Shown: in pieces, positions 1-39,101 of the stretch
Position numbering within the stretch: the stretch's first letter is position 1
Layout: every line of letters starts with the position of its first letter
NCBI GenBank assembly: GCA_010405405.1
Contig: MU004233.1
Span: forward strand, 1,800,566 to 1,864,565
Length of the DNA: 64,000 bases
Source: Microthyrium microscopicum
Taxonomy: Eukaryota
Direction of reading: 5' to 3'
The notes under the pieces: generated by a model
What the model saw: the letters and a program-made list of their open reading frames with translations, nothing else
Told to the model about the DNA's origin: nothing
Database searches by the model: none
Position numbers and translations under genes: made by a program

Positions 1-3000
1 AAAGATATTCTAATAAATACAACTTTTATATAGTACTAAATAGCGTAATTAGGTTCATTATAATTATACTAGTAGTATAATAAGAGCTAAATAAGACATT
101 ATTAGTAAAGGTTTTCTTTTAAAAGCTAGTACGTTATTAGAATTAATTAATAGTAATAATAAGAATCTATAAAAATTTTAATATTAGGACGATAGTAATT
201 ACGACGCTCTTCTACGTCTTCATATTAGGTAGGAGGATAAGTTTAGAGAAAGCTAGAGGGTTATCTTACTACTTAGTATAGAAATACTCTAGTAGTCTTT
301 AGCCTATTATTAATTTAAGTAGGAGTAAAGCTAAATAACCTTTTTCTAGTAATATTATTAAGTAAAGCATTTTAGGTACTTAATCTTAGGCTACAAGTTA
401 GTTTATTTTATATATAGTAGTAGCCTTCTCTAGTTTTATTAGTATATCTTAGTCTAGGCAAGAGCCTTAAGTTAAGTTATCTTAACTTTTTATATCTCTA
501 TCTAAGGGTTTTCGCTAGTTAGCACTATAATCTTACTACTCTTAGCCTAGATACTTACGATACTACTCCTTAACCTTACCTAACAATATACATACCTTCC
601 TTTCCTTTAATTATATAAATCCTAGCAAAGTATCTACTACCTAATACATTATAGCAAAGTATTTATTTCCTTATCTTAAGACATTATAGCCTTAACTTTT
701 AGCTATAAACTAAAGCCTAGCGGACCTATAGTAACATTATGATACTACTTCTTAACCTTACCTAATACTATATACTTTTCCTTTTTCTTAAGTATATAAA
801 GGATAAAGTAGTATATACTACTTCTAAAAGGTTTATATTTTACTATTTGCTAAATACAAACTACTTAGCCTAGAAATATATTTACTAGCTTTAGTACTAA
901 ATATTCTACTAGTTTGCATACTATATCTTAATAATATTTTAAATTATATTTAGGGTTATAATATATATTAATATATAATTGTATTTAAGAGTCTTAGGTT
1001 AGAGTAGTAATAAAGGAGTAGAAGTTAATAACTCTATCTATTAATATATTAATGCGTATAGAAGTAAACTTAAGATACTTTATCTTCTTATTTAGAGTAC
1101 GTAAATATATCTCTAGTTTATTATATTTATATTCTAGGTTAGGTAGGTTGTAGTAATATAATATTTAGTACTAGCGCGCTATAATATTCTTATTATATAA
1201 GGCTTTTATATAGATACTATTAATATCTAATTTAGGTCCTAGCTAACTTTTTACTAAGTCTAAATTACAAAATAGATTATTCTACTAGATAGAGACTTAA
1301 ATATACTATATTAGGTATTAGTTAGGCATAATCTTATAATATTGCTAGATTATACCTTTAATATAGTCTAGTTATTATTAAGCAAAAAGTAGAAAAGTTA
1401 TATTTTATAAGCTCTAAAACCTAGGAGTAGTAAAAAGTATATTAAATATGCTATTAGTATCGTATTTAGGATAGATATAAGATAGTATTATATATATAGT
1501 CTTACTACGAACCTTAATAGTAGAGTCCCTATAGATATCTTAAGTAATAGCGCGTCCTACTTTAGCTATAGTAGTTGTACGTTTAGTAGTTATAAGTTTA
1601 GTAATTATACGTCTAGTAATAGTAACTGCATTACTTCTAAAAAGGTAGTTATTAGTAATAATAATAGGAATAATTCATACAATAGTCTCTCTAAACTTAT
1701 ATCGTATCTAATAGTTAACTACCTTTATAGATAGACTCTTATTAACCTCTTCTAGGTTTAGCTAACTAGTTTAGGAATTAGAAAATTAAAAATCCTATAG
1801 AATCTAATTAAAATATATCTATTAATTAGTTATAGGTTAGAAATATACTTTTATAAAGATAGCTAGTTTATATTTGCCCTATATAATATATTAGTATATT
1901 ATGTCTTAGATTTTATAAGAATATTCTAATAAATATAACTTTTGTATAGTACTAAATAGTACAATTAGATTTGTTATAATTATACTAGTAGTATAATAAG
2001 AGCTAAATAAGACGTTATTAGTAAAGGTTTTCTTTTAAAAGCTAGTACGTTATTAGAATTAATTAATAGTAATAATAAGAATCTATAAAGGTTTTAATAT
2101 TAGGAGGGTAGTAATTACGATTTTTCTATACGCTTTTAAGTCTTCATATTAGGGAGGAGGATAAGTTTAGAGGAAGATATAGCGTTATTATACTAGTATA
2201 GAAATACTCTAGTAGTCTTTAGCCTATTATTAATTTAGGTAGAAGTAAAGCTAAATAACCTATTTTTATTAATATTATTAAATAAAGTATTTTAGGTACC
2301 TAATCTTAGGCTATAAGTTAGTTTATTCTATAAGTAGTAGTAGCCTTCTCTAGTTTTATTAGCATATCTTAGTCTAGGTAAGAGCCTTAGCTTAATTTAT
2401 CTTAACTTTTTATATTTCTATCTAAGAGTTTTTACTAGTTAGTACTATAATCTTACTACTCTTAGCCTAGTTAGAAACAGGATAGACTATAATAGATCTA
2501 ATTATTTAGAGAGATTATAGAAAAAGGTAGAATTATAATAGGTTGCTATTCCTAGTCGTATATTAATAGAGTATTAAAAAGTAGGTACGTTAATATATTT
2601 AGGTAGTTATATTTATATTATTTAAGTTAGTCTAAGTACTCTACCTTAGCTTGTACCCTTTTTTGCTAAGTATTATATTTCTAAATAATATAACGCCTAG
2701 GCTTATAGACTAAGCTTTACTATTTCTATATTACTATAATAATTATTCTTTTACTTAAGTTTTACTTATTCCATTCTAAGCTAATTCTAAGGTTGTTGTA
2801 TTTATATAAGGCCTATAGTACCTAAGTATGCGCAACTTCGCCGCGCGGTTATCAGCTCCTCTTGCTAGCGGACACAGCTTTTATCATTAGCTACTTTCCA
2901 ACTTCCTATTACAACTTCCAGCTATAGACTATAATTAGAAGTCAAAATATAAACATACTTACAACACTACTTCTTAATTCGTAATCTAGCGAAATATATA

Positions 3001-4850
3001 CTACCTAAGAAGCCTTAACTTCTAGCTATAGACAAAAGGTTAGACCTATAGTAATATTACAATACTACTCCTTAACCTTATCTAATAATATACACTTTTC
3101 CTTTTCCTTAATTATACAAAGGGTAAAGTAATATATATAAAGGGTAGAGTAGTATATACTACTTCTAAAAGCTTTATATTCTACTATTTGCTAAACGTAA
3201 ATTGCCTAGCCTAGGAATATATTTACTAGCTTTAGTACTAGACGTTCTATAAGTTTGCGTACTACATCTTAGTAATATGTTAGAGTATATTTAGAGTAAT
3301 AATATATATATAATAGTATTAGAGTTAGAATAAGACTAAAGTTATAGACAGTACTCCAAACTTTACCTCTATCTACTAATACGTTAATACGTATAGAAGT
3401 AAACTTAAGATACTTTATCTTCTCGTTTAGAGTACGTAAGTACGTCTCTAGTCTATTATATTTATATTCTAGGTTAGGTAGCTCGCAAGAATACAGCATT
3501 TAGTACCAGCGCGCTAGGATATCCTTATCGTATATAGCTTTTATATAGACGCCGTTAATACCTAATTTAGGTCCTAGCTAGCCCTTTACGTAGTCTATAT
3601 CTAAATTTCAAAATAAATCTTCCTACTAAATATAGACTTAAATATACTACACTAGGTATCTATTAGGCAAAATCTTATAGTATTGCTAGATTATACCTTT
3701 AATACAATCTAGTTATTATTAAGTAATAAGCTAAAAGGTTATATTCTATAAATTCTAAAACATAGGAGTAGTAGAGAGCGCATTAAATATGCTATTAGTA
3801 TCGTATTTAGGATAGATATAAGATAGTATTATATATATAGTCTTACTACAAACCTTAATAGTAGAGTTTTTATAGATATCTTAAGCAATAGCGCGTCCTA
3901 CTTTAGCTATAGTAGTTACACGTTTAGTAGTTACAAGTTTAGTAGCTACAAGTTTAGTAGTTATAAGTTTAGCAAGACTAATCTCATTACTTCACTAAAG
4001 GTACTTCTTAGTAATAATAATAGGAATAATTCGTACAATAGTCTCTCTAAACTTATATTATGTCTAATAGTTAATAGCCTTTATAGATAGTAGACTCTTA
4101 TTAACCTCTTCTAGATTTAGCTAGCCAATTTAGGGATTAGGAAATAGAGAATCTTATAGAATCTAATTAAAATATATCTATTAATCGTTTATAGGTTAGA
4201 AATATACTTCTACAAAGATAGCTAGTTTATATTCGCTCTATATAATATATTAGTATATTATATCTTAGATTTTATAAAGACATACTAATAAATACAACTT
4301 TTATATAGTACTAAATAGCGTAATTAGGTTCGTTATAATTATGCTAGTAGTATAATAAGAGCTAAACAAGACGTTATTAGTAAAGGTTTTCTTTTAAAAG
4401 CTAGTACGTTATTAGAATTAATTAATAGTAACAATAAGAATCTATAAAGGTTTTAATATTAAGAGGGTAGTAATTACGATTTTTCTATACGCTTTTAAGT
4501 CTTCGTATTAAAGAGAAGGATAGGATTAGAGGAAGATATAGTATTATTATATTAGTATAGAAATACTCTAGTAGTCTTTAGCCTATTATTAATTTAGGTA
4601 GAGTAAAGCTAGTAACCTATTTTTATTAACATTATTAGATAAAGCATTTTAGGTACCTAATCTTAGGCTACAAGTTAGTTTATTCTATATATAGTAGTAG
4701 CCTTCTCTAGTTTTACTAGTATATCTTAGTCTAGGTAAGAGCCTTAGCTTAATTTATCTTAACTTTTTATATCTCTATCTAAGGGTTTTCGCCAATTGGC
4801 ACTATAATCTCACTACTCTCAGCCTAGTTAGAAACAGAATAGGCTAAGTA
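1..4850 (-). repeat. Tandem three-copy ~1.9-2.4 kb RIP-degraded unit carrying a relic gene of unknown family
   Basis: The same sequence (…taataagagctaaa[t/c]aagac[a/g]ttattagtaaaggttttcttttaaaagctagtacgttattagaatt…) occurs in copies beginning near 1, ~1,917 and ~4,276. The copies end in agcctag near 550, 2,470 and 4,827. In copy 3 a minus-strand frame from ~4,180 to ~3,000 includes ORF 3269-3499 and is broken by RIP-type stops. Confidence 0.85.
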
Positions 4851-4889
4851 AGTACTTACATACTAGACCCTAGAGTAGAAAGTGCAGTC

Positions 4890-5792
4890 ATGTAGACTTT
4901 GCGCCGTATTAGACATACACAACTTAATAAGAGCCTAAGAGGACTCTATAAGTATTTCGTAATCCGCGATACATATCCAGGATAAGTTAGGCCTAGCAAG
5001 CTCGCCGTCGTTTTCATTTCCTGACTAAAAGGCCAACATCTAGTCCCTAATGACCTAGATTACCTGCAGGTGTAGTTTATATAAGAAAAGGGGCAGAGAA
5101 TAAGAAGTCGCCCTCACCACAATAACCTACTTCTCATTAAAACTAGGTATTATGTATACGTCGACGCTCTTAACCCAATGTATACTTATAAAGTCCTATA
5201 TACATTTAAATCTAATATACTAATTCGCTATATTAACTAGGCAGCCCTAATTATAAGACAATGCGCCATGTTTCTAACTACACAGTTAAACGCCTATATA
5301 GAGCCTAACACGTTCTCTAAGATCGCCCTAGCGTTGAACGTATTCTATAAACTCCTAAGCGTAGTCATAAGCAAACATACAGTTAGAATAGAATTCTACA
5401 AGCAATAGGATATAGATAGATTTAGCCTTACTCAAATCGGCCGTAGTAAAGGTAAAACAGGGCTAATCCAATACGTCAACATTAGTATCTATATATAAGC
5501 TAATAAACTCGTTTGCTATAAAGAGAAAGTTCTATGCTTCGTGTCTAGCTTACTAACAGACGTAGAGTAGATTAAATATATCAATTTACAAGCAGGTAAG
5601 GATTCAAGTACCAAACCATTAAGGAAACCAAGAGGGATTATCGTATAATAGCAAGTAGTAAGCAGATACGCGTCAACTAATTAAAAAGTATCCTAGCTAT
5701 TCAATTCAGTCAATAAGTATTAAGCCGCCAAGATAAGAAAAGCACTCTATATATATCATGTTTCATATCTCGCCAGGCAGTCTAAAAAATAG
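4890..5792 (+). pseudogene. RIP-inactivated intronless gene relic, unknown product (~300 codons)
   Basis: One + frame from ATG at 4,890 reads as protein-like text (…RSRPHHNNLLLIKTRYYVYVDALNPMY…IALALNVFYKLLSVV…) with scattered TAG/TAA/TGA stops compatible with C->T or G->A changes. Family not recognised. Confidence 0.5.
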
Positions 5793-8413
5793 TAATGCGC
5801 TAGGTTTAATTATAATAAAGGGTTCTAGCTTTAGAACCATGTCGTTCCTAGCTCAATTAGTAGAATTAACAGTAATATTGTTTAGGTAATGAGTAGACGC
5901 CAGCGCAAACATATAAATCAGCATAGTTTCAGCTATAGATAAATTCATAAAAGCCTCAATGTAGGTACTTTAAGTTATAGGGTATAGTAAAAGAACTCAG
6001 AATAAGTTAGAGTCTAGTATAGTATAAAAGTAATACCTAAGGTATTATAGTATACAGCGTTCGCTATAAAGGGTTAGTCACTAAGATATTTAATTTACCT
6101 AGTTAAGCAAATAAGTAATTAGCTTACATAAAAAGAATACGAACGAATATGCCGCTACTAAGCACAAAGAAAATAATAAATAAAGAAGGCAAAGAAGAGA
6201 AAGGAAAGTATGTATTTTCATAAAGCGCAAAGAATAATAGTATTACAAGGAGGTATAGCCTAATAGGCATTAATTAGTCCGTTACCATAAGGCTTATATC
6301 CACACATCTAATTAGATAGTAAAATAGGCGCCTAGTACATAGCTTACCTAGCATTACGAAATTAGCATAGACTAGTACAGAACAAGCGTAGCCCATAATA
6401 GGCATATCTTCATTTCGCAAAAAAGAACGGCTAAACACCATTCGCTTAGCTTTTTATACAAGTACCTAGTATAGCGATTTTTAAAGAAAGAGATCAGAAA
6501 ACAGAGCCACACGCGTGTTCACTAAGCCAACGGTTTTATATTTTAAATAATAATACTTAATATATATAGGCTATATTTAGACCCATCCATCATCGTCATC
6601 TTATAGGTTTTCAAAGTCTGCGTCTATAATAAGCAAAGACTAGTAGTTAACGAAGGTCAAGGATAGTATACTATCCAAAGTATAGAACCTAGCATAAAAA
6701 CGACAGTCTTCCACCTTAGTAGTTATATCGTTAATATACACAATTACGTAACTAGTAACTATTGCTCCAGACCATCTACAGTCTATAATACATTCCCAAG
6801 AGCAAGGCATATATAGTATAGAAGTAGTAGTTACTTATACAGTTACTAGAACGCTAGTAACTCCGCGGCGAATTAATCAAATCAGGTCCAACAGAGGTTA
6901 ATATGCTCTAAAGGATAGTAGACGAAAGAATATTACGCAGACTAGGTATAAATTCAACGTATATCATATTGAATACAAAAGGGGTAAGTGTACACTTTCA
7001 AGCAAGGCGCGACTAGATAATGTTCCACATACTAAGAACGACCTATATATTAATGCAATCCAATAGTCATCCAAATATAACGCAATATATATATAGGTAG
7101 ACGCAATTGCAGACATATCATTTAACAAAACTATAAAGTTAGTAAATTCTATAACTTCATCTAGCAGTAAACAACCTTAGATTCGTAGTTTCAAACCAAA
7201 TTCTCAGTAATAACCAGTTATAGTAATACCCAAATAAGCCTAAACATTATTTCCCACACCATAGCCTTACGAAAGTCAGTCTCACAGAATATTAAAATTG
7301 TACTAGGCCAGAAGGCTAATAGCACCCCACAGGCTACAATTGCGGTCGCCCCAAATTACATTAGAAATAAGTAGGTGGAGACCTTTAGACCTACCAATAT
7401 TAATAGCATCAAGCAAAAGTCGACTCAGCTAGCTTGCTACATTACTATCGATGGGGTTGTTATTAATAATAATAGCAAATTAGCTTTCTTCCAGCAAATA
7501 TTTCCACGCCTCACAACAAGTTTGCTTACTAACTTAAAGTATAGAGTTAATTTTTGTAGTTATAGAGTGTAAGCTAAACCATTGTAAAAGCCACGGAACA
7601 TTAAAATCTTCCAAGGGCGTAGTACAGAGAAAGAAAGTATTTACTTTAGTTATTATTTAGATCAATAGCGTAGTATCAATAAAACAATACTTATAGATAA
7701 GATTTCATATTTCGCCAGGAATTCGGTCAAAATGAACCACAAATACTACAGAATTTATACAAGTCATAGTGTTCATAGCTATTAACGTACGTCAAACATG
7801 TAAATGTATATCCATCACAATTATAATAAATTCTCCAAAATTGACAGCCTAATTACTAAAATACAGGACTAAACTCTATTTGCCTAGGTCGTATTTTTAT
7901 AGTAAGCAAAACAGCACAACAACGAATATAGGGAATAGGTATATAAAGTAATAGAGAGAAGATTACTAAAATTATAAAAGAGGGAAAGGAAGTTAAGGAT
8001 TACGTTGCTATCTAATATTTATACTACCGTCAGAATCGGCACAACATAGAGTTTAGTTATAATTTAGCGTTATGTACAGTATAGGCCTTAATTGGTCCAT
8101 TATTATAGGCAGCCAAGCCAATCAGGCCATGAAAATAGCACTAGCATTACTTAGTCTAATACGAAACAAGCTTAGCGCAAAATATACCTATCGCTGCCTT
8201 ACTTTATATCAAGCCACTTAGACGTTCATTAACCCACCAATGCTATTATGTAATTCTTCAAGATTTCTTTTAGCTATATCATGTTCATTTAAGGCACTAA
8301 CTTAGCAAAAGTCTAGCTAAACATCTTTTACAGTAACGCGTAAATAGTATTTGGTATATACTATTCCAGAGAACATATCAGATAAATAATAAAACTCTAG
8401 CTCGCCGTATATT

Positions 8414-10014
8414 ATATATCAAACGATTTATAAAAACAAGACTACAGGGCAGGCTAACAAGCATATTAGCATAGCTCCTTTGAGGGAAAGTATCCCTTCA
8501 AGCAAAATACAAAAAACACTCAATAATTATATTACAGTTCTAGGCACGCGTAATACTACTCCCCTCAACGCCCATATACTATTCAGTTTTGAGACAGATA
8601 TATCTCAATTTACCTATCACACTATAGTTATAAAGTTGTCCAAAGCTTCCAAGATATTAAATAACCGCTTAGAAATATACATAAAGATAATGCAGGCTTA
8701 TCATAACATTAATAATGCCAATATAGGAAATCCAATATTACAGAGTCAGTATTGTATTATAACAGTTAGTCAAATAGCCACAAATAGTATTAACGGCAAA
8801 ATTAACGCCTCTTCATTATTCCTAAAAACTTCAAGGCTCATTAGGGGAGGACGTCAAGTACGTCTCAATCTTAATAAACTCACTAATTACTACTTATTTC
8901 CAAGCAAGATTGTCACGCTTCGTAATAAGAATGCGTCAAAAAATTACTTTTCAGTAACGAAGATTCTAAATCCGCCGCAACAGCCATTAGTCCAGTCTAC
9001 CATACTTAATCTCGATAGCATCAATAACTTAACTAGCCATAGGACAAGTACCAGCTCCCAACCTATTATAACTCTTATCGCATTCAGGCTATATTTAATA
9101 GACGCAGACCTAGACTTTACGCCCTTAGTTACTCTATTAAAGGCTACTAAGGATATCAACGCCAATTTCATTATACTAACAAGACCCTTTATCAACAGTA
9201 ACCACCCTCTAGTGCGTACCAGCGACTTTAACCTCCCTATTAGATATCTACACAACCCTAGTACTATAAGTCTCAAGGACCTTTTTCGCGCCTACATAAC
9301 TACACCGCTTCAAGAACTAGTCAACATAATACTAAATATCCAGATCATTATATATCCCTCTATACGCGATACAATTACCACGGACGTAGTTTAGCTTCAG
9401 GATCGGTTTACGGATCCTTATATTATACTTAGATTACTAAGGCAAGTCCAAGTAGGGTCAAATCCTATTATAGTCAACATAAATGAAGTACTAGTCAGTA
9501 TATCATCACAAGACGCCTTACAGCAAATACGCATGTCTAAAGTAGCAGGTAGATTACTACACAAGATGCAACCAGTTAAACGGGCATATCAAGAAATTAT
9601 TAAACAACGTACATTCTTTCCAGTATTTCCACCCTTAGAATGCAAACTTTTGCAAACCACATCTAGGGAACTACCATTTACTTAATCAGGTCCAAATTTA
9701 GATATTACACATCTAGCACTAGGAGACTTCATCCCCACTAAACCCAATATCCTTATAATACTATTATTATTACTATCACTTGCTAAAGTATTATACATTA
9801 CCTTATTATAATACTAATACAAGCTAACACCGCTTAAGTTATAGACGACGTTTTATATATTAATTCAAGATTTGTCTACAACAACCACAGCATAGGAACA
9901 TACGCGCGCATAGTTCTCAATCTACTAGTAATATTAGACATAGATCCAAGGGCGGATATAAAACATAGACATATTATTAGCAAAAGGTACAGAGTAGATA
10001 TCATTAGACTATAA
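8414..10014 (+). pseudogene. POL12: RIP-degraded DNA polymerase alpha-primase B subunit (Pol12), N-terminally shortened copy
   Basis: ORF 8480-9394 resembles fungal Pol12 motifs after G->A drift: IKLSKASKILNNRL (cf. MKLSEASEVLDDRI), SQIATNSINGKINASSLFLKTSR (cf. GRIASDSLEGKLNAASLVLETSR), LFPSKIVTLR (cf. FFPGQIVALR), IILTRPFINSNHP (cf. LILTGPFLDxEHP). The stop at 9,392 sits at the Trp of the WPQ motif. The frame continues (SNP…NEVLVSISSQD…RTFFPVFPP), has a relic intron ~9,788-9,837 (gta…gctaac…), and ends GTYARIV…RVDIIRL* at 10,014. The start at 8,414 assumes ATG->ATA. Confidence 0.9.
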
Positions 10015-10414
10015 GTTAAGCAAGAAAAAACACTAATTCCAACAAGCTATACATAACAGTTAATCAATAAAAGCAATTGCGCTAAGTATTATATATAAAC
10101 AATAGATAACATAACAAGACCAAAGTTACTAAATTCAAAGGTATAGAAATTTTAAAACAAGAAATCAAACCCTATGCTTATAGGCAAGCCTACCAAGCCC
10201 TAAGCGTAAGAAAGGACTAAGCATACCTAAATATAAGCTCTCAGCCCAGTATGTTTGTAAAAAGTCATAATTTACAGACTACGAGTTTTTAAAACTAAGA
10301 GGCATACTCTATACTCCTTTTTGCGTAGTAAAATAACTATTCCAATAGTTTGTACCATAAAGGTATATATACATCTATTACGCACATGAACCAATCATTA
10401 ACCAAAAACTCAAT

Positions 10415-11720
10415 AAGGTAAGTAGGTAGTTATTACTAGCTTCCACGTCTAAAAAACACTAATGTTCCTCCTACCAAAATAGCCCTCCAACCAATCCGCT
10501 TTGTTTATAGAGACTTCTCTAGCTAAAAGCTTAATAGTAGTCTCATATTAATAATAACGAGACATATTATTAACGTACATAATAATATACGCCTCTACAT
10601 CATACATCATACTATCCTTATCAAGCATTTTGCTACAATCTACCACGCACTCCCAGAAAACTTTAGAGTCAAAGATATCAAACCACTTTTCCAACATCTC
10701 ATCCTTTGTAGCTTACGTTTTACTTTCAGCCTTCTCCAAGACCTCACAGCCCAGCTCTTCCATTTTCATTTTCCAAATGTAGTATATAGCTACAATATAT
10801 AGTGTAAAAGTCTACTCCAAAACCAATAGGTACTCATATAAGACTTAAGCAAAATAAAAAATAGGCGCATGCTAGGTCATATCCACTCATACAGCGATAG
10901 ATAGGGTGAACGCTTCCCTACCTTTAAGGCAGCGTTCAAACGTAAAACGATCTTGCATGCCTAGCATACATAAAAAATCTTCTTGCCAAAGACATCCAAA
11001 TTGTCCCAGAGAACTACTAAGAACATTTTATAGAGTCATGCCAGGGTAATATTCCATTAAGCCGCATATACTACAACCCATAATAATGCAATTTATCACC
11101 ATAAAATCGGAACAACCTTATATCATGGCTTCAACCTGCTCCATAACGGGTTTAGGCTTTAGACTAGGATACTATATTCTAGTAGCAAAGAGCCTAGTTC
11201 CCACACTCTTATAGCATCCAAAAAACAGTTTTCCCACCCAAGCAAAGTCCAACGTTTAGACTCTAGTACTCGCTATCCAAGGTACCACTCTACCAAACTC
11301 AAGATCACTATCGCTAGTAATAAGCATATAATCATTCTTAGTAAACAAAGCATGTTTTAAGTCCGCGCGCGTTTCTCTACAAACCTACAATATGCTTAAG
11401 ATTCAATACTACTACGTCCAATTTTGTACGATCCAGTTAGTCTTTAACATATATAGAAGACTATCACATATTATATACATATTAGCTCCATCTAGTGGAT
11501 TTATAGTGTCTTAAATAAGTAATAGAAGTAAGTCATCACTCCTTTTAACCATCAATTCGTATATACACATTTTTAATTCCGCAGGCAGAACGCTCAAGAA
11601 AGAGCTTTTTTGTACAACTTCGCGATATATTTTCCGCGATAAATAACGGACATAATATAATTAATAAATGCAATATAACTAATATTTAAATCTATATCTT
11701 CAATTTATAGCGGGCAGCAT
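10415..11720 (-). pseudogene. RIP-inactivated F-box-like protein gene (~430 codons)
   Basis: The minus frame from ATG at 11,720 contains SSFLSVLPAELKMCIYELMV (fungal F-box-like L-P-x-E-L-x-x-x-I-Y motif, ~11,545-11,606) and later ILSIL*VCRETRADL (LLxxCR-type motif). Internal stops are TAA/TAG/TGA while TGG codons survive. Confidence 0.7.
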
Positions 11721-12239
11721 ATTTTCTGCCAATTCCCTAAGGCTTGCAAGCAAATTAATTAATTCCAAGGGGTTAATAGAGGCAGGTCGCGAAGACGAAT
11801 TACGTATATAGTTAACTATAATTGCTATAGATTGCTACATCAAAGTATAGAATTCAGGAAGTAGTATAGACCGAAGATTCTACTTCCTAGGCCATCAAAT
11901 ACTATTATCTTAAGTAAGGAAAAGGAGTTAAAAGTTAAAGTAGAAGAAGAAGTTATTATTAAAAAGAAGTAGTCCTTAAACCCAACGAAGGGAAGAACAG
12001 AATTAATTTAAATATGCGCTAATACATAGATGGCGTAGGTATCATTATTAACTTATTAACTTATTAACTTATTAACTCATGTAACCAAATAATAATATAG
12101 AATTAGACAAGTAAAAAGTTAAGAGCAAAGTTGAGGAGAAGAAGAATCTCAATATTGGAATTAAAATAGATACAGAAACTCTTAAAGACATTATCTACTT
12201 ATATAGAGTAGACCTACGCAATTAGAAATAAGGTATCTA

Positions 12240-13400
12240 AGACGTTTAGGCATGTAGATTTAACTCTTTGCCTCGTCCACTTTCTTATATCTACTTCTCT
12301 TTAATTAGAGTCTAAATATATTCTAATACCACATTATTACATTAACCTTCACCGTATCGCATAACGTTAAAGTTCCTATACCCACTTATATTATACTAGT
12401 GCAGGAAGTAGTTTATTAACACAAGTTCAATTTCAACTACATTAGGCCATACAAGGCAGAACATGATACACTAATAATAAGCAGCAGGCATATAATCGGA
12501 TTACCTATCTAAATCTACATGCCTCTTCACGCTCACTAGGTCCCTAATTAAATATGCTTATAACTCTTACTTAATCTTTAACTATACCCTACCATCGCCC
12601 TCAACCTTAATAGCATAATCTTATACAATTTTAGTATCAACTTCATCGCTAGAAGCATATAAAAACTAAATATCTTCATATACTACAACTAACAATTATT
12701 AGTCCTATTTCGTAAAGCATCCCACCATTTTACGTGCAAACTCTCATATTTAATACAAGATTCTCGCAGTACGTAGTATCATACACTACTATGCAGGTCA
12801 GCCTAGCACAATATTAAACTATAGAAGGAAGTCCCAACCTTACCCTATCTAAAGAACACTTAAGAGCAAAGTAGAGCAGTCATCCAAGTCAAAGCCATAG
12901 AGCATATCCTATTAATAAACAAAAAAGACCAGAATTATAGTACCCCTAACTACGTAGCCATTACAGAAGTTAAAAAATAGAATAAAGTACTTAAGATATA
13001 GTAATAGTATACTTTCAGTGCTAGCAAACGACTATCCTTTTCACATAAGCTAGTTTTCAATAACTCTATAATATATCGTATTAGCCCATATTACTACGCT
13101 TAGATTCAGCAAGTAGCAAAATATAGGAGAGTATTACCTATAACTCAAAAGGTTCTTAACTACTACTATAATACGCTTATTCCAAGATACTCTAGGCTCT
13201 TAGTCCGTCAGAGTCCAATAAAAGTACATACTAGTCAGATCTAGGTAACATATACATACGACCAGCAGATTATCCTTATTGCTTTACGTCTAAGTCAGAG
13301 TTTAGGGTTTAAAATCTAAACGAATAAAACTAATAATTTCCGTTACAACCTAGCCAAATCCAGCTAAGTCTACAAGGCAGTCCTACAGCAAGGCTCCTTA
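12240..13400 (-). pseudogene. RIP-inactivated gene relic, unknown product
   Basis: Minus-strand frame reads protein-like (…VEGDGRV*LKIK*EL*AYLIRDLVSVKRHVDLDR*SDYMPAAYY*CIMFCLVWPNVVEIEL…) with C->T-type stops. Only the 3' part was translated; the upstream boundary is approximate. Confidence 0.4.
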
Positions 13401-13969
13401 ATCTAGACAACACTCTATCAACATAGGGAACATTAAATATTAGAATAATAATTAATGATATTACAAATAAGAATAACTTAATAAATCATAAGAGTATACA
13501 TACCACAAAAGACAGAAGCCAAATAGAGTAGTAAAATAGACAAGGAATAGTCCAAGTAAAAGATTATAACATAAAGTTAGAGAAAAGAACCAGTATATAT
13601 AAAGACTATTATTTAAATAAGTATGCCTTAAGGTAGGGTTCCTTAACTTGTCTAGTATAGTTTTTAGAACACAACATTCAATATTTATTATACGGCAAAT
13701 AATAGCACAATTATAAATAGTACTATAGCATCAGTTCATAATAACATCAAGAGAGCAACAGTAAAGAAGTATTCCACGAAATAATTAGTACTTTTCATTT
13801 AGTACATTTCTAACACATTCATCTTAATTACTTTATTCATTAACCTAGGACGCCCAAGACTCAGGTTAACAATAACAGCCAATCAAGTTAGCTCCTTAGA
13901 CCACGCCTTATCTAGTACACGCAGAACCATTATTCTAACTCCGTCCTTAGTGTATAGTCAAAACTAACA

Positions 13970-14640
13970 CATTACTACCTAGCTAGTAAGGCAATAAGTA
14001 CAACTAACAATATACATATTTTAACATTACACAAGTCAACAATCGCCTATGCACTATTCATGTATTAGCTATAGTCAATAGAGTTATTCGCATTAAGTTC
14101 AAAACAATTCACAAAAGACGCACTTCTTAATACAACCTACTAAGGTATAGATCCCAACTACACGTAGGTCGGTGCTTCATTTAGTCCACTTAGAACCATA
14201 GTCTTATAATTTTAAGGCCAAACGCCTGCAAGAAATGCGACATTCCAAAGCTCCAGCAGACTAATTCCCGTACAGTAGTCTTCTCTAAAAAGTTAGGTCC
14301 ATCGTCCATCGTTATTCAGACACTCAAAGTCAAGCTACGTATTGTCGAGAAGACTACCATTAAGCCATTCAGCAAGGTTATAGATTACAGTAAATAGTTC
14401 CCTATATTCCTTACTATTGCTATAGTATTTTAGGTATCGCTTCTTCAGATCTCAAGCAATACTCATTCAAATAGCCTTTAGCTTATTTTATAGCGTTTTC
14501 AGATTCAACTCTGCTCGCAACAACTTAGCATTATTATTTAACTCTTTAGAGTTTTTAAGTCCGCTAACAGTCCATTCTTAGCGTAGAGCAGCTTCGTCAT
14601 ATTTGCTAGACTCAAAATAATAGAAGGTTAAACTAGTCAT
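13970..14640 (-). pseudogene. RIP-inactivated gene relic, unknown product
   Basis: Continuous minus frame (…AKLLRAELNLK…IYNLAEWLNGSLLDNT*LDFECLNNDGRWT*LFREDYCTGISLLELWNVAFLAGVWP…) with C->T-type stops. Confidence 0.45.
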
Positions 14641-15223
14641 ATTTAGATAAACCGCGTTTATATAGGAGTAAGATTTTTATTAGCTTTTATTCGCGTATTA
14701 GATTATTATAGCGTTTAAGAACGATAGTAAACTTAGGCGAGTAGAGTATAATTAACTTATTCATAGTAGTATTAAATATACTTACAAGTAATGCAATAGT
14801 AGTTATTTTGCAGCAAGAATAATAAACAATTATAAGTAAACTAAGTAAGGAACGCGACGATAGAACTATACGCTAATACTAGTTTAAGGTTAACGCTAAG
14901 TTTCCTAGAGCATTCCTTATAGAACGTCAATTCACTAACTTTAACTCATTACATTATAGCAAGTAGCGCCATTATAATAAAAGAAAGCGTATATAACTAT
15001 ATTACTATATATACTCCCAGGTAAGTAGTTAACAAGAAAACAAGGATAAGAAAGCAATATTTTATATTCATTAGACTCAAGGTTATAAAAGTAAACTACT
15101 ACGTATGCAAATCATTCAATTACTTTTACTATTTTACATACTAATAAGGTATCCATTAATGATTAAAACCTGTCGCAACTAAACTAGACATTAGATATAT
15201 CTACCCTTAGTTCAATTATCGTC

Positions 15224-15913
15224 CTACTCTTCCTCCTCATCTATACTTAACAGTTCTTCGTATTGCATAGCCTCATCATCATCCAATTCCTCTTGCTTAG
15301 TCTCAGTATCGTTCTCGTAGGGATAGCCATCTGTTTCCTCCCTATCTTCTACCTTAAGATCAATAGCATCTTCGCTTTCATAGTCGTCCAAGTCTTCTCC
15401 TTCTTCGCTGTCATCCTTACTCTCATTATCCCCATCAGCCAGTATTAGTACATATGTAGCTTCGACAGTAGCATAGCCAAACCCAGTACTGTACCCAGCA
15501 CTCAACAACTTTGCCCATCATGCCTCGTTGTTATTACAAAAGAAAGTCAGCTAAGCAGTAAGAGATAGTCTACCCATCTACGTTTTAGCATAGTTATAAA
15601 TCGCAATAAAAAGTTCTTCAAACTCCTTCTTATTAGCATATTATAACCCTATAAAATATCTATCAATATCTCAACCAATACTAGCTCGAATTGCAATTAA
15701 GTAGTCTTATTAGTATTTAAGATCCAACAGTACAATTCAAAGTTTGTTATAGTTCGTTTTTCTAAAAAATCTAAGGTCAACAATTTACTTTTCAAGTAAC
15801 ATAGCTTCTTTATCATAATTGCTAGATCTATAGTATTAAAAGGAAGACTAGGTTCAGAGGGTAATTATAACCCGTAGGCTAGTAGTAGTAACAAGATACA
15901 TTAAACGTAGCAT
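15224..15913 (-). pseudogene. RIP-inactivated gene relic with acidic C-terminal tail
   Basis: ORF 15224-15508 (D/E-rich tail) extends in frame upstream to an ATG at ~15,913 through TAA/TAG/TGA stops (…ANKKEFEELFIAIYNYAKT…). Confidence 0.5.
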
Positions 15914-16929
15914 TTTTATAGTTAAGGGAGTACTATATATATAATACTACTAATGCTTCGTAGTAAGGGAATTCAAGCTTTCAAGAAGAGAGTTAGTAGA
16001 AATATTAAGATAGAGGAAGAGTTTGAATAGGTAAAAGAGCTTAAGGCAGATTATTAAGTATTAGAACATAAAGCAATAGGTTACAAAACTAGTTTAGTAT
16101 TAGTTATAGTTACCTATACCGTTTTTACCTACTAATTCGCTACACGCTAGCACGCTTTTTTTTACTAGTAGCGCTTTCAACTTAGGCAGTAACTCGCTAT
16201 TACCTAATAATAATCTTAGTCTAAAAACCCACGCTACTATATTACATATTAGCAGGTAAAAACGATAAGCATACCTATAGGATAGCTAACATTAAACCGT
16301 CCTTTCTACATTAGTTAGCTAAGGATACTATCATTCTATATATATATATAAGATATAACTTAATTACTATTTACGTAATACGCGAGCATAAAATATAGCG
16401 TAGTATCATTACAGTCAATAAATAAGTACTTCCCTATAGCTACGCATAGTGTTTGCTAGAGTATATATATTACACTAAGGTTATAGAAACAAGCTATCTA
16501 CTAACTTTATTTTATCTTAAAAGCGCGTTTAATTTCGCTACTAATATAAATTACTAAACAATATATAGAGACTTAACTTTCTATGCCAACTCTTATATTA
16601 TATAGTATTTAGGCTACAATCTATATTAGTTCAAGTTTCGTATGGGGAATATCTTAAATTCTTATAACTTAGTTAAGTTATTATTATCAAGATCGCTATT
16701 CTATTAATACCTAGATAGCAAATATACACTAGAGTACAGGCTATAAAAATACAAAGTTTCCAAACTCAGCTTACAGTATAGTAATATTTATCAAGTAGAT
16801 AATCCTTACTTAAACTTCACTATCGTCGCTAGCTACTATTAATCATCACCTTTACTATCGTCACCCAAGTTAGTTCTACGCACCTTGCCTACAATTTGCT
16901 CTTTAATATATGCGTCAACCACATACTAT

Positions 16930-17800
16930 TTAGACTACGATTAGCAAGTACTATTATAATAGAGCAGTAGTATAACCTACATAAGCTAGATTCTTGCCCC
17001 AATTACCTTTAACCTAAAGTACTAGAGCGGAATGTATTACAATACTATTACCTACCTCAGTTTCATAATTATTACCACTCTTATAAGTAAGCATTCTAAC
17101 GAGACGCGATTTATTAGCCTTAGATGTCTATTTTAACGAAGCAGTATCCTAATCCAGTTCAATACTTATCAAACTAGCAGTCATTATATTTAAAGCCAAA
17201 CTAGCCTCCTCATTGCTATTAGTCTCAGACAGCATTACGCTCTAAAAACTATAAGGACCAAAGTGTTAGTAGTTAGTCGTCAAATCCAACTCGTATTGCG
17301 GTAGAGATACAACGCTCAAGCTATTATTAATTCCAGTACTACTATCTACAGATAGATCATCTTAAAATCTCTAGGTTTCCGCCTTTAATACACCCCTACG
17401 AGCGTCGCGCTCCCATTTATGCTCTTAAATCTATTTACATAGTTTACAAATCTAATCCTCATTAGTAGGCTAGAGGTCATCAAGATAAAATTAAACTTAC
17501 TACATTATCAAGGTCTTTTTTAGCGCTTTTAGAGAACTCATCTTTATATTTAGTTATCTCACATTGCACGCATTCTAGGAAACGGTTTACCTAATTCTTA
17601 GCTATAGTGCATTCAAGACATCAAATATAGCCAGTATATCTACGTAGAAGAGCCCCTTAGGCTCAAGTTAATTAGCCATCGCTAAATGCGCTTAGGGGCC
17701 TATAATAGCGGCATTCCTAGCAAAGAAAACTAGTTTATATTTAGCAAGTTAATTTCTAGTTCCATACAGCACAACTAAACTTACCCTTACGATTAAAGTG
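16930..17800 (-). pseudogene. RIP-inactivated gene relic, unknown product
   Basis: Long single minus frame (…KLVFFARNAAIIGP*AHLAMAN*LEPKGLFYVDILAIFDVL…EHKWERDARRGVLKAE…) interrupted by TAA/TAG at probable Gln codons. Confidence 0.45.
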
Positions 17801-18499
17801 CTAGATCGTAAGGCATCTTATATTAGACTAGTTTATTACAGTAAACGTAAAGATTAAGAAATACAAATCATTAATATAAACAGAGGTCAATAACAGAATA
17901 GGAGAAGTTGTCGTAACAGAAGTAGACTATAGTGAAACTTTAAAGTTAAAAAGACAATCAACCAATTATTAACCCTAACAAGTCCAATAAATAATATAGT
18001 AATAGTAATAGAAGAAGGAGAGGTAGAGTAGCTACAGATAGAAGCTTATATATATATAGAAAACCTTAGCGGCAGCAGGGTACTCTATAATAATAGCAGA
18101 CAACAACACTATTACTACTTACTAGGTATACAGACCGCAAAGCTATATTAACCTACATAACTTAATTTTGCAAGTCAATTAAGAGGTTACTATATTCATT
18201 AGAGGGGTAGTATTATATATATATTAAAAGAGTATATACAGTCTACTATCCATAATAGGCAAACTTTAAAGCACGCCAATTAGAGAGTTACCTAGAACTA
18301 TATATTATAACTTCAATCCAATCTTTTAAAGAATATAAACTAACGCGAGGACCCTAGTATACAAGTCTAGTGCGACAAAAAGTCTACACTTAATATTTTA
18401 CAATGTTCGCAGTTTTTAGAAATGTTGCTAATTCCTAAGTCTAGATATCTACAGCTATGCCTAAGTAATAGATAAAGTATATAGATAGGTATTTTATAG

Positions 18500-18592
18500 C
18501 GTATGCTACCTCTATTAGTTTTGCGCTACCCTCTATTAGTTTTACGTTACCCTCCATTAGTTTTACGCCACCCCCTATTAGTTTTGCGCTAT
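18500..18592. repeat. 21-bp tandem repeat (~4-5 copies)
   Basis: Unit ~ttttgcgctaccctctattag repeated head-to-tail; it explains the LLVLRYP repeat in ORF 18503-18730. Confidence 0.85.
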
Positions 18593-20049
18593 ATTTTGCA
18601 CCAAAACTATAGTACGCTCACTTTACTTTACAGCATTAGCTACACGCTTAAAGTTGATATTATTACTTATTACGAATACAATTTAAATTCATGTTTATTA
18701 AGTTACCTTATCGTCTCAATTCATTATTAGCCTACCAAATAGCCTAGGTACTACATAGGCCTACCCTAACTACACGGACGCCCTTCAGCAATGTCAATTT
18801 CAAGACTAGACATCTATAGACCAATATATTTTTATTTACTAAACTACATTATACTTTCCAACTAGTCCAAAGTTCTACAAAATCCTATAACTAGTTAGCT
18901 AAATAAACTATAAATTCAGCAAGCGCATAGAGTATTCTTATACCTTAACCGTAACTAAATAAGACATTAATTCATTCAATTCTTAAATTATTTAAAGAAT
19001 GCTAGTAAACAATATTTCAGGTCTAGGAATAAAATTAAATACTATTATAACAGTTAGATATATACTTAGATTGCATTAAGTTAACTTCGAAATGCTTACT
19101 GTTCTATAGTATAACCTATCTTATATTACTCAGTAATAAGAACAGCCTAGCAACCATAGTTCCAGTCATAGGCAAATAGCTTTAATAGAGTAGGACGACC
19201 CGCAAGAGTGCTACGTAGACTATAGGCATTACAGTATACAGCAACAAACAACTTATTAAACTCCTTAGTGCCACGACGTAGGCTAATAAACCAGGATTTA
19301 AGTTAGTCAGATATAGCTTGACAGACACTAGTAATAATCTTTTAGAGACGAGTAAGATCTACTTATAGAATCAACAAGCTACAAGCCACGGAAAAATTAT
19401 TAACTTTACGCATATTTACGATAAATTCCTTATGCTAGACAACGCAAGACTTATATACACATTACTTATCAATATAATTAAAGCTAGACTAAGGGAAGGT
19501 TATATTATATACGCGCAATATAATAGTCTAAGAAACGCTCATCATTAACGTATACGTACGCGCGAAAATAAAAACGAGAATATAACGACGCTAGGACCTA
19601 TATCATAATAAGCGTACAAATTACAATAAGAATTACAACTTTAAGTATTATCATCGCGCATTTCAAGCGAAGGTAAAATATTTAGAGAAATAAGAGAAGA
19701 TTATACTTACTTTTAATAAACTATAAGAATAACTTATAAAAGTCACAATATAAAAAAGTAAGGAGAGTAGTTTTTAAAAGATTTAGAGATTAAACCTTCA
19801 AGAAGAACTAAAGACTACTAAATATATTAGCACGCTAAGTTAGTACAAACTTACGTGCTTCAGAAAGACAAGAAAGAAAATATAATAACTTACTAAGATT
19901 AGATTAGAGTATACGTCATTACGCTAGAGATAAGATAGGAAGAGTTTTCTAGTATCTTTTAAACATATATAAGACGAAAACAATTATAGAGACTAGTAGT
20001 TTTCGGCTGCTACAGAAGAGGCTTAAGTAGTCTAGTACCTTTTAAATAG

Positions 20050-21462
20050 TAGAACATTACACTACTAGAGACTTCTAGAATATATATAATAGTAGTTACT
20101 AGTACATTTAGTATATTAACTTCCTAGTAGCTTATTACGTAAAATATTATAGTAGAAACTTCTATAGTATGCATAATAGTAGTTACTAATACATTTAGTA
20201 TATTTCTATCCTAGTAGCATATTACGTAAAACATTATAGTAGAGACTTCTAGAGTATGTATAATAGTAGTTACTAATACATTTAGTATATTCCTATTATA
20301 GTAGCATATAGCGTTAAACGTTATAGTAGAGACTTCTATAGTATACATAATAGTAGTTACTAATATATTTAGTATATTCTTATCCTAGTAGTATATTACG
20401 TAAAACGTTATAGTAGAGACTTCTAGAGTATATATAATAGTAGTTACTAATACATTTAGTATATTCCTATTATAGTAGCATATAGCATTAAACGTTATAG
20501 TAGAGACTTCTATAGTATATATAATAGTAGTTACTAATATATTTAGTATATTCCTATTATAGTAGCGTATAGCGTTAAACGTTATAGTAGAGACTTCTAT
20601 AGTATGCATACTAGTAGTTACTAATATATTTAGTATATTCTCATCCTAGTAGCGTATAGCGTTAAACGTTATAGTAAAGACTTCTATAGTATACATACTA
20701 GTAGTAACTAGCATATTTAGTAGCTTAACCTCCTAGTACCGTATTATATAAAACGTTACGTTAGGGACTTCTAGAGTATACATACTAGTAGTTACTAGAA
20801 TATTTAGTATCTTTACGTTCTAGTAGCGTATTGCGTAAAACGTTATAGTAGAGACTTCTAAAGTATGCATACTAGTAGTAACTAGTATATTTAGTAGCTT
20901 AACCTCCTAGTAGCGTATTATATAAAACGTTATATTAGGAACTTCTAGAGTATATATACTAGTAGTTACTAGAACATTTAGTATCTTTACGTCCTAGTAG
21001 CATATTATATAAAACGTCGTATTAGAGACTTCTAGAGTATGCATACTAGTAGTTACTAGAACATTTAGTTCCTTTACGTCCTAGTAGCGTATTACGTAAA
21101 ACGTTATAGTAGAGACTTCTAGAGTATACATACTAGTAATTACTAACATATTTAGTATATTTCTATCCTAGTAGCGTATAGCGTAAAATAGTATAGTAGA
21201 GACTTCTAGAGTATATATACTAGTAGTAACTAGTATATTTAGTAGCTTAACCTTCTAGTAGCGTATTATATAAAACGTTACGTTAGGGACTTCTAGAGTA
21301 TACATACTAGTAGTTACTAGCATATTTAGTAGCTTAACCTCCTAGTAGCGTATTATATAAAACGTCGTATTAGGGACTTCTAGAGTATACATACTAGTAG
21401 TTACTAGAATATTTAGTATCTTTACATCCTAGTAGCGTATTACGTAAAACGTTATAGTAGAG
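20050..21462. repeat. 87-bp tandem array (~16 copies, runs into assembly gap)
   Basis: Motif agtaga[g/a]acttct recurs at 20,151, 20,238, 20,325…, a period of 87 bp (29 codons). Copies differ mostly by transitions. Confidence 0.92.
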
Positions 21463-24120: not shown

Positions 24121-24339
24121 TATAATAATTCTTTATAGTACTAAGTATTAAGAAAGATTTTAGTATTATAAAATTATACGCTAGACTTAGAAGGGTTAGC
24201 GCGTCTAATGTTCTATTAAGTAAACTTATTTCCCTTATAAATCTATAATAGTTCTAAATCTTCTTTTTCTATTCTTTATATATAGATTTTTAAATACTAG
24301 CTAATTATCTACTTACTCTAAGTTCTACTACTCGTTATA
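24121..24339 (+). repeat. 5' LTR of Gypsy element
   Basis: tataataattctttatagtactaagtattaagaaagat…ctaagttctactactcgttata; homologous to 31,759-31,974 and 36,867-37,085. Confidence 0.9.
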
Positions 24340-38470: not shown

Positions 38471-39101
38471 TTTATTTTATAAAATAATTATAATAAGTAT
38501 TTTAATAATTAATAATTTATTTTAAAAATACTTTATTTTTACTTTATATAATTTTATAGTTATAAAAATACTAATTTCTTATAGTTTTAATATTATAGTA
38601 AGTATCTTTATAGTAAAAGGATTTACTAGCTTTAGTATACTAAATATATATATTATTAAAGTTTAATTTAAAAAAAAACTATACTTTTATTTAATATAAT
38701 ATTTATAAATTTAACTATAATTATAAATAGTATTAAAAGCTTTCTACTAAGTAGAATAAATAATACTAATAGAAAAAAGATTAGAAATATAAAAAATATT
38801 AAATTAGTTTATTTTAGTTAGTTTTTAGTTAAGTAATTATAAAAGAATAGTAGTTATAATAGTAATAGTAATAGTTAAAAAAGTAAAGTTAGAAGTATAG
38901 CTTAGTAGTAATTTATATTTTATTTTTTAAAATATTACTAGATTAGGTTAGACTAAGGCTACTTAAAGTTAGATTAATATAGTAATAGTAAATAATCTAT
39001 TAGGTAACAGCAGCTAAGGCTACCTAAGATCTCGCTGGGGCCACTTTAGGATTAGCTAAGGCTACTTAACAACACCCTTGCGCAAGTTCCTTGCGACTTA
39101 G

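Follow-up and report, generated by a model that had tools for sequence, protein, structure and literature searches.

RIP-degraded gene islands of AT-rich isochores are well known, and a block of this kind is as such ordinary. The question raised by the locus described here is whether its genes were themselves a target of RIP or were damaged from the repeats that surround them. It lies in a 64,000-nt stretch of contig MU004233.1 of Microthyrium microscopicum (hereafter the window), in which a first-pass annotation had proposed that positions 4850–21462 hold seven or more gene relics of a formerly multi-copy segment, possibly the cargo of a Starship-like giant mobile element.

A single-copy island with RIP-type damage

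DNA counts as RIP-affected when TpA/ApT exceeds 0.89, (CpA+TpG)/(ApC+GpT) is below 1.03 and the composite index is positive. All 2-kb bins from 4001 to 20000 lie beyond these thresholds: TpA/ApT was 1.28–1.56, (CpA+TpG)/(ApC+GpT) was 0.53–0.90 (0.00–0.25 in the flanks and 1.24–1.49 in the gene-rich part beyond 40 kb), and the composite index was 0.38–1.03 (versus -0.41 to -0.92 in that gene-rich part). CpA/TpG loss is accompanied by TpA gain, and the damage is RIP-type, as had been proposed. GC content is about 30–36%, with values of 0.31–0.35 in these bins, and RIP is milder than in both flanks. The affected single-copy DNA, set within an AT-rich repeat region, extends from 4850 to about 20030 (~15 kb; Table 1). 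The end at 21462 given earlier was set by a run of Ns (21463–22307), and the DNA just before it is a tandem array, not gene relics.

Table 1. Features of the locus, with the evidence for each
Feature	Position	Strand	Evidence
Left flank: repeated-element copies, RIP-saturated on both strands	1..4846		self-blastn, dinucleotides
Single-copy island, RIP biased to minus-strand CpA (plus-strand TpG to TpA)	4850..20030		dinucleotide counts, source contig
Pol12 (DNA polymerase alpha subunit B) pseudogene	8321..10011	+	Pfam, PDB, tblastn, profile
Pol12 relic, parts	exon part 8321-9787; intron-like gap 9788-9837; last exon 9838-10011	+	gap opens with GT, contains CTAAC
Pol12 relic, in-frame stops	9392-9394, 9683-9685; two adjacent at 8387-8392	+	first two in tblastn-aligned part, adjacent pair in profile match
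97-codon ORF with acidic tail, in coding-like stretch about 15152-15997	15227..15517	-	ORF lists, codon phase
Stc1-domain gene relic, riddled with stops	17504..17722	-	Pfam PF12898
87-bp tandem array, 16.1 copies, both-strand RIP, truncated by N run 21463-22307	20066..21462		TRF, self-blastn ladder
Internal control: sharp border of RIP-saturated repeats and unmutated unique DNA	38801..39200		200-bp bins

The flanks are truly repetitive. On the left, 688–2489 matches 3011–4846 at 85% and 1–553 matches both 1921–2473 and 4276–4830 at 88–89%; CpA is reduced to 7–25 and TpG to 4–10 per kb, contigs of the source run split into variants, and none of the six frames of 1–4850 yielded a Pfam family. 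On the right, the tandem array scored 1667 in TRF with 85% matches, and no Pfam family was found in 22308–26509.

The island itself is unrepeated within the window, as the first-pass annotation had stated: 0 of 40 self-blastn pairs touch 4850–19800. When the source run was assembled independently, one exact 15,582-bp contig spanned 4763–20344, and no second copy of the block at 80% likeness or more was present among the high-depth contigs, which speaks against a multi-copy state at present; at this limit an independently RIPed partner at about 75–80% could be missed, and identical copies would collapse into one contig. Contig depth was flat over the block (333.8–338.5) and, being uncalibrated against single-copy DNA, is not a measure of copy number. 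The only other sequencing run with block sequence was X5 (0.12 share, 8 exact pieces listed, depth 2–4), whose pieces are probably carry-over and do not point to a second host. No RNA run was listed as containing the block; the RNA-labelled run X6 covered only 45 bp of the window, at 16157–16201, and run X4 showed a library-specific break and loose end at 8871–9138.

The damage is one-stranded and even

From 5001 to 20000, we counted 1036 CpA and 193 TpG (binomial p 9e-140). Relative to the window's reference part, CpA is as in unmutated DNA (69.1 versus 71.6 per kb), TpG is down 83% (12.9 versus 74.0) and TpA stands at 148.3 versus 53.5. G is down by 92 per kb and C by 37 per kb. The plus strand was also touched, with C 16% below the reference, and CpG to CpA products may mask part of the CpA loss. 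The minus strand carries about 3–5 times as much RIP damage as the plus strand, and this damage is even along the whole island: every 200-bp bin from 4801 to 20000 holds only 0–8 TpG, without decay from either edge, and the damage halts sharply at the flanking repeats. Strongly one-stranded damage that is uniform across 15 kb is what is new here. Plus-strand CpA dips near the right edge and at a few interior spots.

One-stranded RIP as such has a precedent in parent–offspring sequencing of Neurospora crassa, where 91.9% of RIP clusters carried only C>T or only G>A changes, reported as a single round on one strand (PMC7296669). The clusters described there arose in a single generation within duplicates, whereas the island is 15 kb long and near saturation; such a tract needs a very heavy RIP round or several on the same strand.

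RIP could instead have spread inwards from the repeat arrays on either side to an island of dispensable genes that had never been duplicated, for example by a heterochromatin-linked route of the DIM-5/DIM-2 type, an explanation that we regard as somewhat unlikely. The island is single-copy in the source contigs and is flanked by RIP-saturated repeats, a position in which spreading is expected and which counts against a former target; the plus-strand CpA dips also fit. As described for N. crassa, heterochromatin-related RIP through DIM-5/DIM-2 mutates single-copy DNA between or beside repeats with a strong CpA preference, even stronger for DIM-2-mediated RIP (bioRxiv 10.1101/115501), and the island, with its very strong CpA preference, resembles this; the effect reported there concerns linkers of hundreds of bp and array-adjoining regions, whereas the island is strand-biased over 15 kb. 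Likewise, in the AvrLm1–LmCys2 region of the Dothideomycete Leptosphaeria maculans, single-copy genes between RIP-degenerated transposons gain RIP mutations and stops. According to that account the single-copy islands are small and the degree of RIP declines away from the repeat, with a figure of at least 930 bp cited for N. crassa (PMC2973834), whereas the island shows no decay over 15 kb and is strongly one-stranded. Repeated leakage across many cycles should moreover strike both strands, and the bias here is about 5:1. Finally, the same window offers an internal control at 39.0 kb, where GC 0.17, no CA and no TG in one 200-bp bin (38801–39000) give way to GC 0.49, 14 CA and 7 TG in the next (39001–39200), so that leakage did not reach beyond about 200 bp, although selection on living genes there may contribute. 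A catalase-like exon, with a 56% match to Venturia effusa, was also noted.

A relic of Pol12

Pol12 is an essential, normally single-copy replication gene, whose product (POLA2) has an OB domain followed by a calcineurin-like phosphoesterase domain (DNA_pol_E_B). Judged by its sequence, the "replication factor" that had been noticed at 8.4–10.0 kb is certainly a Pol12 relic. Pfam identified DPOA2_OB (7.8e-25) and DNA_pol_E_B (4.5e-15), and PDB matches were 8b9a_B (8.6e-28) and 3flo_A. With the Pol12 protein P0001 as query, tblastn gave 45% identity over residues 176–659, and the relic matched positions 126–671 of 672 in a profile built from 117 Pol12s, the N-terminal 125 positions finding no match in it. 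Domain order is that of Pol12. The alignment to orthologues is collinear, shows 3 gap positions and needs no frameshift; the relic's reading frame, interrupted by stops (Table 1), is not intact.

The substitutions carry the mark of RIP. Conserved Pol12 sites show numerous changes of the types D>N, G>S/N, E>K and V>I. In the 485-residue alignment 218 residues are identical, G>A explains a further 95 and C>T another 28; G>A thereby accounts for 95 of the 267 non-identical residues, versus only 5–19 for each of four control changes. Because the damage is mostly on the minus strand and even along the island, the plus-strand Pol12 still has a long open frame, in which G-to-A missense changes abound, whereas stops have shredded the Stc1-domain relic of the minus strand described below.

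When RIP changes were allowed for, the best identity to P0001 rose to 0.645 (G>A) or 0.709 (G>A plus C>T); the other 119 Pol12s reached at most 0.575 with G>A allowed. For comparison, congeneric pairs share 83–91%, and Tothia and Venturia 0.63. A search with the relic of a protein collection that includes this genome's annotated proteins (1 of 4 window ORFs found exactly) returned only P0001. Since the relic tops out at about 65–71% to known Pol12s, it is unlikely to be a recent duplicate of the resident gene, a conclusion that depends on database coverage, the resident Pol12 not having been observed directly. The distance from every known Pol12 suggests that the segment would be either foreign, by way of a mobile element or of introgression, or else an ancient paralogous region. 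Leakage would require that a second functional Pol12 already existed, which counts against it.

Other claimed gene relics

Six-frame Pfam scans of 1–26509 detected only two families, Pol12 and Stc1. The latter lies in the relic claimed at 16.9–17.8 kb: PF12898 scored 27.1 bits (E 6.5e-6) in the long frame and 31.8 bits (E 2.1e-7) in a 173-codon cut-out with 21 X, above the Pfam gathering score of 24.8, with profile positions 2–76 of 84 aligned. At 15.2–15.9 kb, the claimed acidic-tail ORF showed codon periodicity: C content differed by codon phase with p 6e-4 (15001–15600) and 2e-5 (15301–15900), the sole windows flagged among 51. This test is too insensitive, since Pol12 itself went unflagged. 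The ORF had no HMMER match among 1.84 billion representatives and no Pfam family, and it is only coding-like.

The remaining claimed relics (4.9–5.8, 7.2–7.6, 10.4–11.7, 12.2–13.4, 14.0–14.6 and 19.1–19.6 kb) had no Pfam or PDB match. Their stop-poor runs, 116–137 codons, fall within the range of 100 first-order Markov simulations, in which the 95th percentile was 168 codons on the plus and 144 on the minus strand. No Pfam family was found in 4501–8702 or 11701–15902, and phmmer against PDB gave no match in five of six frames. Sub-threshold Pfam matches to EF_HAND_1_PLCG, DUF5367 and Pua-like (E 0.07–0.16) were treated as noise, and the F-box reading of 10.4–11.7 kb found no F-box match. The seven or more relics accordingly shrink to Pol12, the Stc1-domain gene and the coding-like acidic ORF, the rest being within chance; the same three are what is left of the "unusual gene set", its F-box-like and other members lacking support.

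That most claimed relics are indistinguishable from chance fits a reading with no RIPed gene block at all, in which the island would be old AT-rich non-coding DNA, the product of another mutation bias or an assembly artefact, and the break in run X4 could be taken in the same sense. The full-length Pol12 relic with its excess of G>A, the Stc1 domain above its cutoff, the RIP-type dinucleotide signature and the exact 15.6-kb contig have already largely refuted this reading, which we consider extremely improbable.

A possible giant mobile element: no captain or terminus found

A Starship is recognised by a DUF3435 tyrosine recombinase (captain) at one end, by termini with short target-site direct repeats and sometimes inverted repeats, and by an empty site in relatives. 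No match to DUF3435 or another recombinase was obtained in the scans, whose scope was 1–26509 without the N runs and where heavy RIP lowers sensitivity and could hide one. A check run for short direct repeats at the block edges yielded a longest of 9 bp, no longer than chance, and the best inverted repeat was 8 bp; 29% and 84% of 200 shuffles, respectively, reached these lengths. At the island's edges lie a transposon copy and a tandem array, and the true termini may therefore be lost. No captain or terminus of the Starship-like element proposed earlier was found, and Starship cargo is neither demonstrated nor refuted.

We also compared 7228 ORFs from 79 metagenome fungal Pol12 loci with the window by tblastn. 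This gave 101 matches at E<=1e-3, 97 of them in 8000–10000, 4 in 53–55 kb and none elsewhere in the block; at E<=0.05 there were only scattered matches of 20–28 bits. Because these loci are only 43–68% identical to the query, the comparison says little.

Cargo of a Starship or other giant element, brought to two copies by a cross or transposition and RIPed whole, would be a special case of the explanation favoured below, and we judge it decidedly improbable. A parallel exists in Paecilomyces variotii, where the duplicated Starship Hephaestus was RIPed full-length in the crosses reported, often strand-specifically (mostly C>T or mostly G>A), and its cargo genes were killed (bioRxiv 10.1101/2022.08.04.502770); the island is likewise multigene DNA mutated over its whole length. 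A Pol12 at family-level distance from its nearest named relative (0.65–0.71) fits a foreign source, as does the lack of any gene shared between the block and the flanks of the 79 fungal loci. Unlike Hephaestus, however, for which two copies, captain and target sites are described, the island is one copy with no captain or terminus found, and a core replisome gene is odd cargo.

Origin of the island

The explanation that we favour, with an about even chance of being right, is that the island is the remnant of a multigene segment of at least 15 kb that was itself the RIP target while it existed as two copies, over one or a few sexual cycles. Its Pol12 would have been an extra, dispensable copy, intact until RIP. 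After a RIP burst the copy would have been too diverged for renewed recognition, and its one-stranded pattern would have been fixed from then on, whereas RIP would have continued in the truly repetitive flanks until both strands were saturated. The partner copy may have been lost, segregated away or mutated below 80% identity. The earlier proposal of a former multi-copy state fits the target pattern in this respect (even over 15 kb, sharp edges, about 5:1 one-stranded, a 39.0-kb border without leakage), and lacks a second copy today. The strict mark of a RIP target, a second copy in the same genome, was absent from the window and from source contigs at 80% likeness or more, which counts against a former duplicate, and that only 2–3 gene relics are supported counts against a multigene segment.

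More speculatively, and in our view unlikely, the island could be what remains of DNA gained by horizontal transfer (part of a giant mobile element, or a segment introgressed from a fungus of another family) that brought in a foreign second Pol12 and, not long after it arrived, was silenced in what was essentially a single strand-coordinated sweep of RIP. If so, the one-stranded 15-kb tract would be a natural record of the reach and processivity of a single RIP episode along one strand.

Near-saturated on one strand while the CpA count of the other is seemingly untouched, the 15-kb tract preserves, in unusually clean form, a natural trace of strand-coordinated RIP, and its strand pattern offers a way to separate DNA that was itself a target from DNA reached by leakage using a single genome. 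The dead, strongly divergent extra Pol12 is a hint that foreign or long-separated DNA of considerable length once came into this genome and was put out of action by RIP. Discovery of the partner copy or of a donor lineage would let the block give the date and extent of a single RIP episode, and likewise of a single transfer or duplication.

One-stranded RIP across a gene island

The main new result of the analysis is that RIP in the island is one-stranded. Across 5001–20000 we counted 1036 CpA and 193 TpG (binomial p 9e-140); per kb, CA, TG and TA stand at 69.1, 12.9 and 148.3, against 71.6, 74.0 and 53.5 in the unmutated right part of the window, and the base composition differs from that reference by -92 G, +104 A, -37 C and +25 T per kb. 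The pattern is present in all 200-bp bins from 4801 to 20000 (TG 0–8, CA mostly 10–24), does not weaken inwards from the edges and stops at ~4750–4850 on the left and ~19750–20030 on the right; in the flanks CA and TG are both near zero. When the relic of Pol12, the DNA polymerase alpha subunit B, was aligned to P0001, its closest reference protein, 218 of 485 residues were identical; undoing G>A restored 95 further residues, undoing C>T 28, and four control changes 5–19. RIP on the minus strand was roughly 3–5 times that on the plus strand. The plus strand did not escape entirely, as some CpA loss may be masked by CpA arising from CpG. A corollary of minus-strand-heavy RIP, which fits the data, is that the plus-strand Pol12 relic kept a long frame (2 stops in 485 aligned codons) and the minus-strand Stc1 relic is rich in stops (21 in 173 codons).

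The island lies within bases 1–39000, which are AT-rich (GC 0.11–0.36) with RIP indices far to the RIP side; its own GC is 0.30–0.36 and its indices are positive, less severe than those of the flanks. The first-pass annotation had drawn a block of gene relics at 4850–21462. Such a block exists, at less than that length, its last part being a tandem array, and it is indeed unrepeated within the window: none of 40 self-blastn repeat pairs touches 4850–19800. In the same comparison the left flank resolved into copies of one element, with 688–2489 matching 3011–4846 at 85% and 1–553 pairing with both 1921–2473 and 4276–4830. Bases 39000–64000 are ordinary fungal gene space (GC 0.42–0.52; composite RIP index -0.41 to -0.92 from 40 kb), with Pfam families, including IBR, SLAC1, fasciclin, HET, Frag1 and catalase, in 7 of 10 long frames. 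The first annotated-looking ORF right of the border begins at 40245. One open frame with a C-terminal HET domain (3e-27), ~15 kb off the AT-rich region, is absent as an exact sequence from the protein collection, so its public gene model probably differs. On the other side of the border, RIP-saturated DNA contains the only Rfam match, a borderline one to tRNA (32.5 bits against a gathering threshold of 29), adjoining a tandem array; ARAGORN reported no tRNA, at this site included, and the match may represent a tRNA hit by RIP or what is left of a SINE-like element.

Features of the window discussed in the text
Feature	Position	Strand	Remarks
Left-flank repeated element	1–4846		several copies
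Gene-bearing island	~4850–20030		one-stranded RIP
Pol12 relic	8321–10011	+	pseudogene
Acidic-tail ORF	15227–15517	-	codon-phase periodicity is significant in just 2 of 51 windows, those holding this ORF
Possible small repeated element	16096–16360		plus-strand CpA low around it (7–8 per 200 bp)
Frame of 76 codons	18500–18727	+	repeated 'PLLVLRY'-like motif, a short internal tandem repeat
Tandem array	20066–21462		87-bp unit, 16.1 copies, truncated by N run
N run	21463–22307		845 bases, AT-rich region; hides rightward continuation of the 87-bp array
N run	30675–31424		750 bases, AT-rich region
N run	32511–32520
tRNA-like match	37576–37669	-	borderline
Tandem array	37669–38469		89/255-bp
Right border of AT-rich region	38801–39200		RIP-saturated side: GC 0.07–0.17, CpA and TpG absent
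HET-domain open frame	54617–58453	-	1278 codons

Gene relics in the island

A Pfam scan of six-frame translations, with X at stops (1–4850, 4501–8702, 7801–12002, 11701–15902, 15601–19802 and 22308–26509), detected a family in only 2 of 36 translations: frame 7802+ gave DPOA2_OB (7.8e-25) and DNA_pol_E_B (4.5e-15), and one minus frame gave Stc1 (E 6.5e-6; for a 173-codon cut-out, 31.8 bits and E 2.1e-7, cutoff 24.8). When the six frames of 4850–19851 were run with phmmer against all PDB chains, hits came from a single frame, to nine chains that all belong to DNA polymerase alpha subunit B; the other five frames matched none. The acidic-tail ORF is without a relative among 1.84 billion representatives. 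When up to two stops are allowed, the remaining candidates reach 116–137 codons at most (472 for Pol12), inside the chance range of 100 Markov simulations (95th percentile 168 on the plus and 144 on the minus strand). Thus, where seven or more gene relics had been proposed, Pol12 is certain, Stc1 is supported and the acidic-tail ORF is coding-like; the others are within Markov chance and unverified. Near the 76-codon plus-strand frame TpG is slightly raised (8 in bin 18401–18600).

The 333-codon ORF of the Pol12 relic has P0001, annotated as DNA polymerase alpha subunit B of Microthyrium microscopicum, as its sole match in a 5.8-billion-protein index. By tblastn, P0001 residues 176–603 align to 8507–9793 and residues 602–659 to 9838–10011 at 45% identity. 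The alignment has three gap positions and no frameshift; two in-frame stops replace one tryptophan and one proline. A profile built from the 117 of 120 Pol12s with at least 600 residues matched at 8321–10008 over positions 126–671 of 672; its first 125 positions, poorly conserved, were not found in the relic. The gap at 9788–9837 begins with GT, contains a CTAAC motif and ends in AA at the expected position of the AG acceptor, and we take it for a retained intron. In yeast, Pol12 is an essential, single-copy gene; the relic cannot serve as the functional copy.

Among the best 120 of 1641 Pol12s, P0001 was nearest to the relic (identity 0.449; 0.645 when G>A-compatible and 0.709 when C>T-compatible residues are also counted), followed by three metagenome fragments (0.55–0.575, G>A-compatible), with the rest at or below 0.534. 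On the Pol12 scale, congeneric pairs share 83–91%, Tothia and Venturia 63%, and Microthyrium and Tothia 57%. One of four window ORFs had an exact match in the protein collection, indicating that it includes the annotated proteins of this genome; for a catalase-like exon from the window the nearest protein was from Venturia effusa (56%). An annotated resident parent is missing from the relic's search matches, which disfavours a young RIPed duplicate, since shared words would be expected. Its freedom from frameshifts speaks for a gene that stayed intact up to RIP. We infer that the copy probably has a history of selection elsewhere, whether in a different lineage or as an old paralogue, followed by recent inactivation. 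For 79 fungal Pol12 loci in metagenomes, the flanking DNA had nothing detectable in common with the block, a weak test given how distant these loci are.

Present copy number

Contigs from four runs of one sample, each covering the stretch fully, were aligned at a likeness of at least 80%; the assembly may derive from this sample. Run X1 spans 4763–20344 in one 15,582-bp contig, and summed contig depth is flat (333.8–338.5) in every block bin, leaving no second high-depth contig on the block at that likeness; the depths, having no single-copy calibration, are not readable as copy number. For the left flank the same runs gave many variant contigs. Base composition puts a progenitor without RIP at ~87% identity to the block, so it ought to have appeared. 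An independently RIPed partner near 75–80% identity could have been overlooked, and identical copies would merge into one contig. Run X5, which carries a different organism label, held only eight exact pieces at a listed depth of 2–4, taken as carry-over. At 8871–9138, run X4 alone splits the block into contigs 4763–8871 and 8963–20249, depth is higher in that bin, and a loose end of 236 letters precedes 9138. X1, from the same sample, crosses the site within one contig; either a library artefact or a minor variant may account for the split. At 16157–16201, contigs of the source run and of another run, labelled as RNA and with the same species name, have only 45 bp in common, beyond which they continue into GC-rich unlike sequence, with reads apparently cut at 16333–16359; a small repeated element may lie inside the island here.

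Former target of RIP or leakage from the flanks

RIP could have spread into the island from its repetitive flanks. According to parts of the literature, DIM-2-type RIP extends into single-copy DNA adjoining repeats, with strong CpA preference (excerpts of bioRxiv 10.1101/115501), and the portion of PMC2973834 on L. maculans describes leakage that declines away from the repeat, citing a distance of at least 930 bp for N. crassa. At the 39.0-kb border, GC 0.17 with CA 0 and TG 0 gives way to GC 0.49 with CA 14 and TG 7 inside one 200-bp bin, and no leakage is visible more than ~200 bp past it. So abrupt a border implies short leakage in this window, which selection on the adjoining genes may help to maintain. 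We regard spread from the flanks as rather unlikely. The best fit to a 15-kb tract that is even, sharply bounded and one-stranded is a former target of RIP. Of the RIP clusters in N. crassa, 91.9% hold changes of one type, C>T or G>A, which a passage of PMC7296669 takes as a single round on a single strand. We put at about an even chance that the island was formerly a two-copy segment killed in few rounds. It would have been recognised as a repeat during one or a few cycles and then have dropped under the recognition threshold, freezing the pattern, with the flanks meanwhile RIPed on to saturation.

Starship cargo specifically would be a special case of the two-copy segment. In Paecilomyces progeny with two Starship copies the entire element was RIPed, often strand-specifically, according to the relevant section of bioRxiv 10.1101/2022.08.04.502770. 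Over the first 26.5 kb of the window, N run aside, our Pfam scans turned up neither DUF3435 nor any other recombinase match, a result weakened by heavy RIP, and the two block edges, where the first pass had suggested looking for short direct repeats, have no repeat in common beyond chance. We consider this origin improbable. The object is a RIP-inactivated gene island of an ordinary kind in an AT-rich isochore, noteworthy for its clean 15-kb tract of strand-coordinated RIP and for its dead, divergent copy of Pol12.
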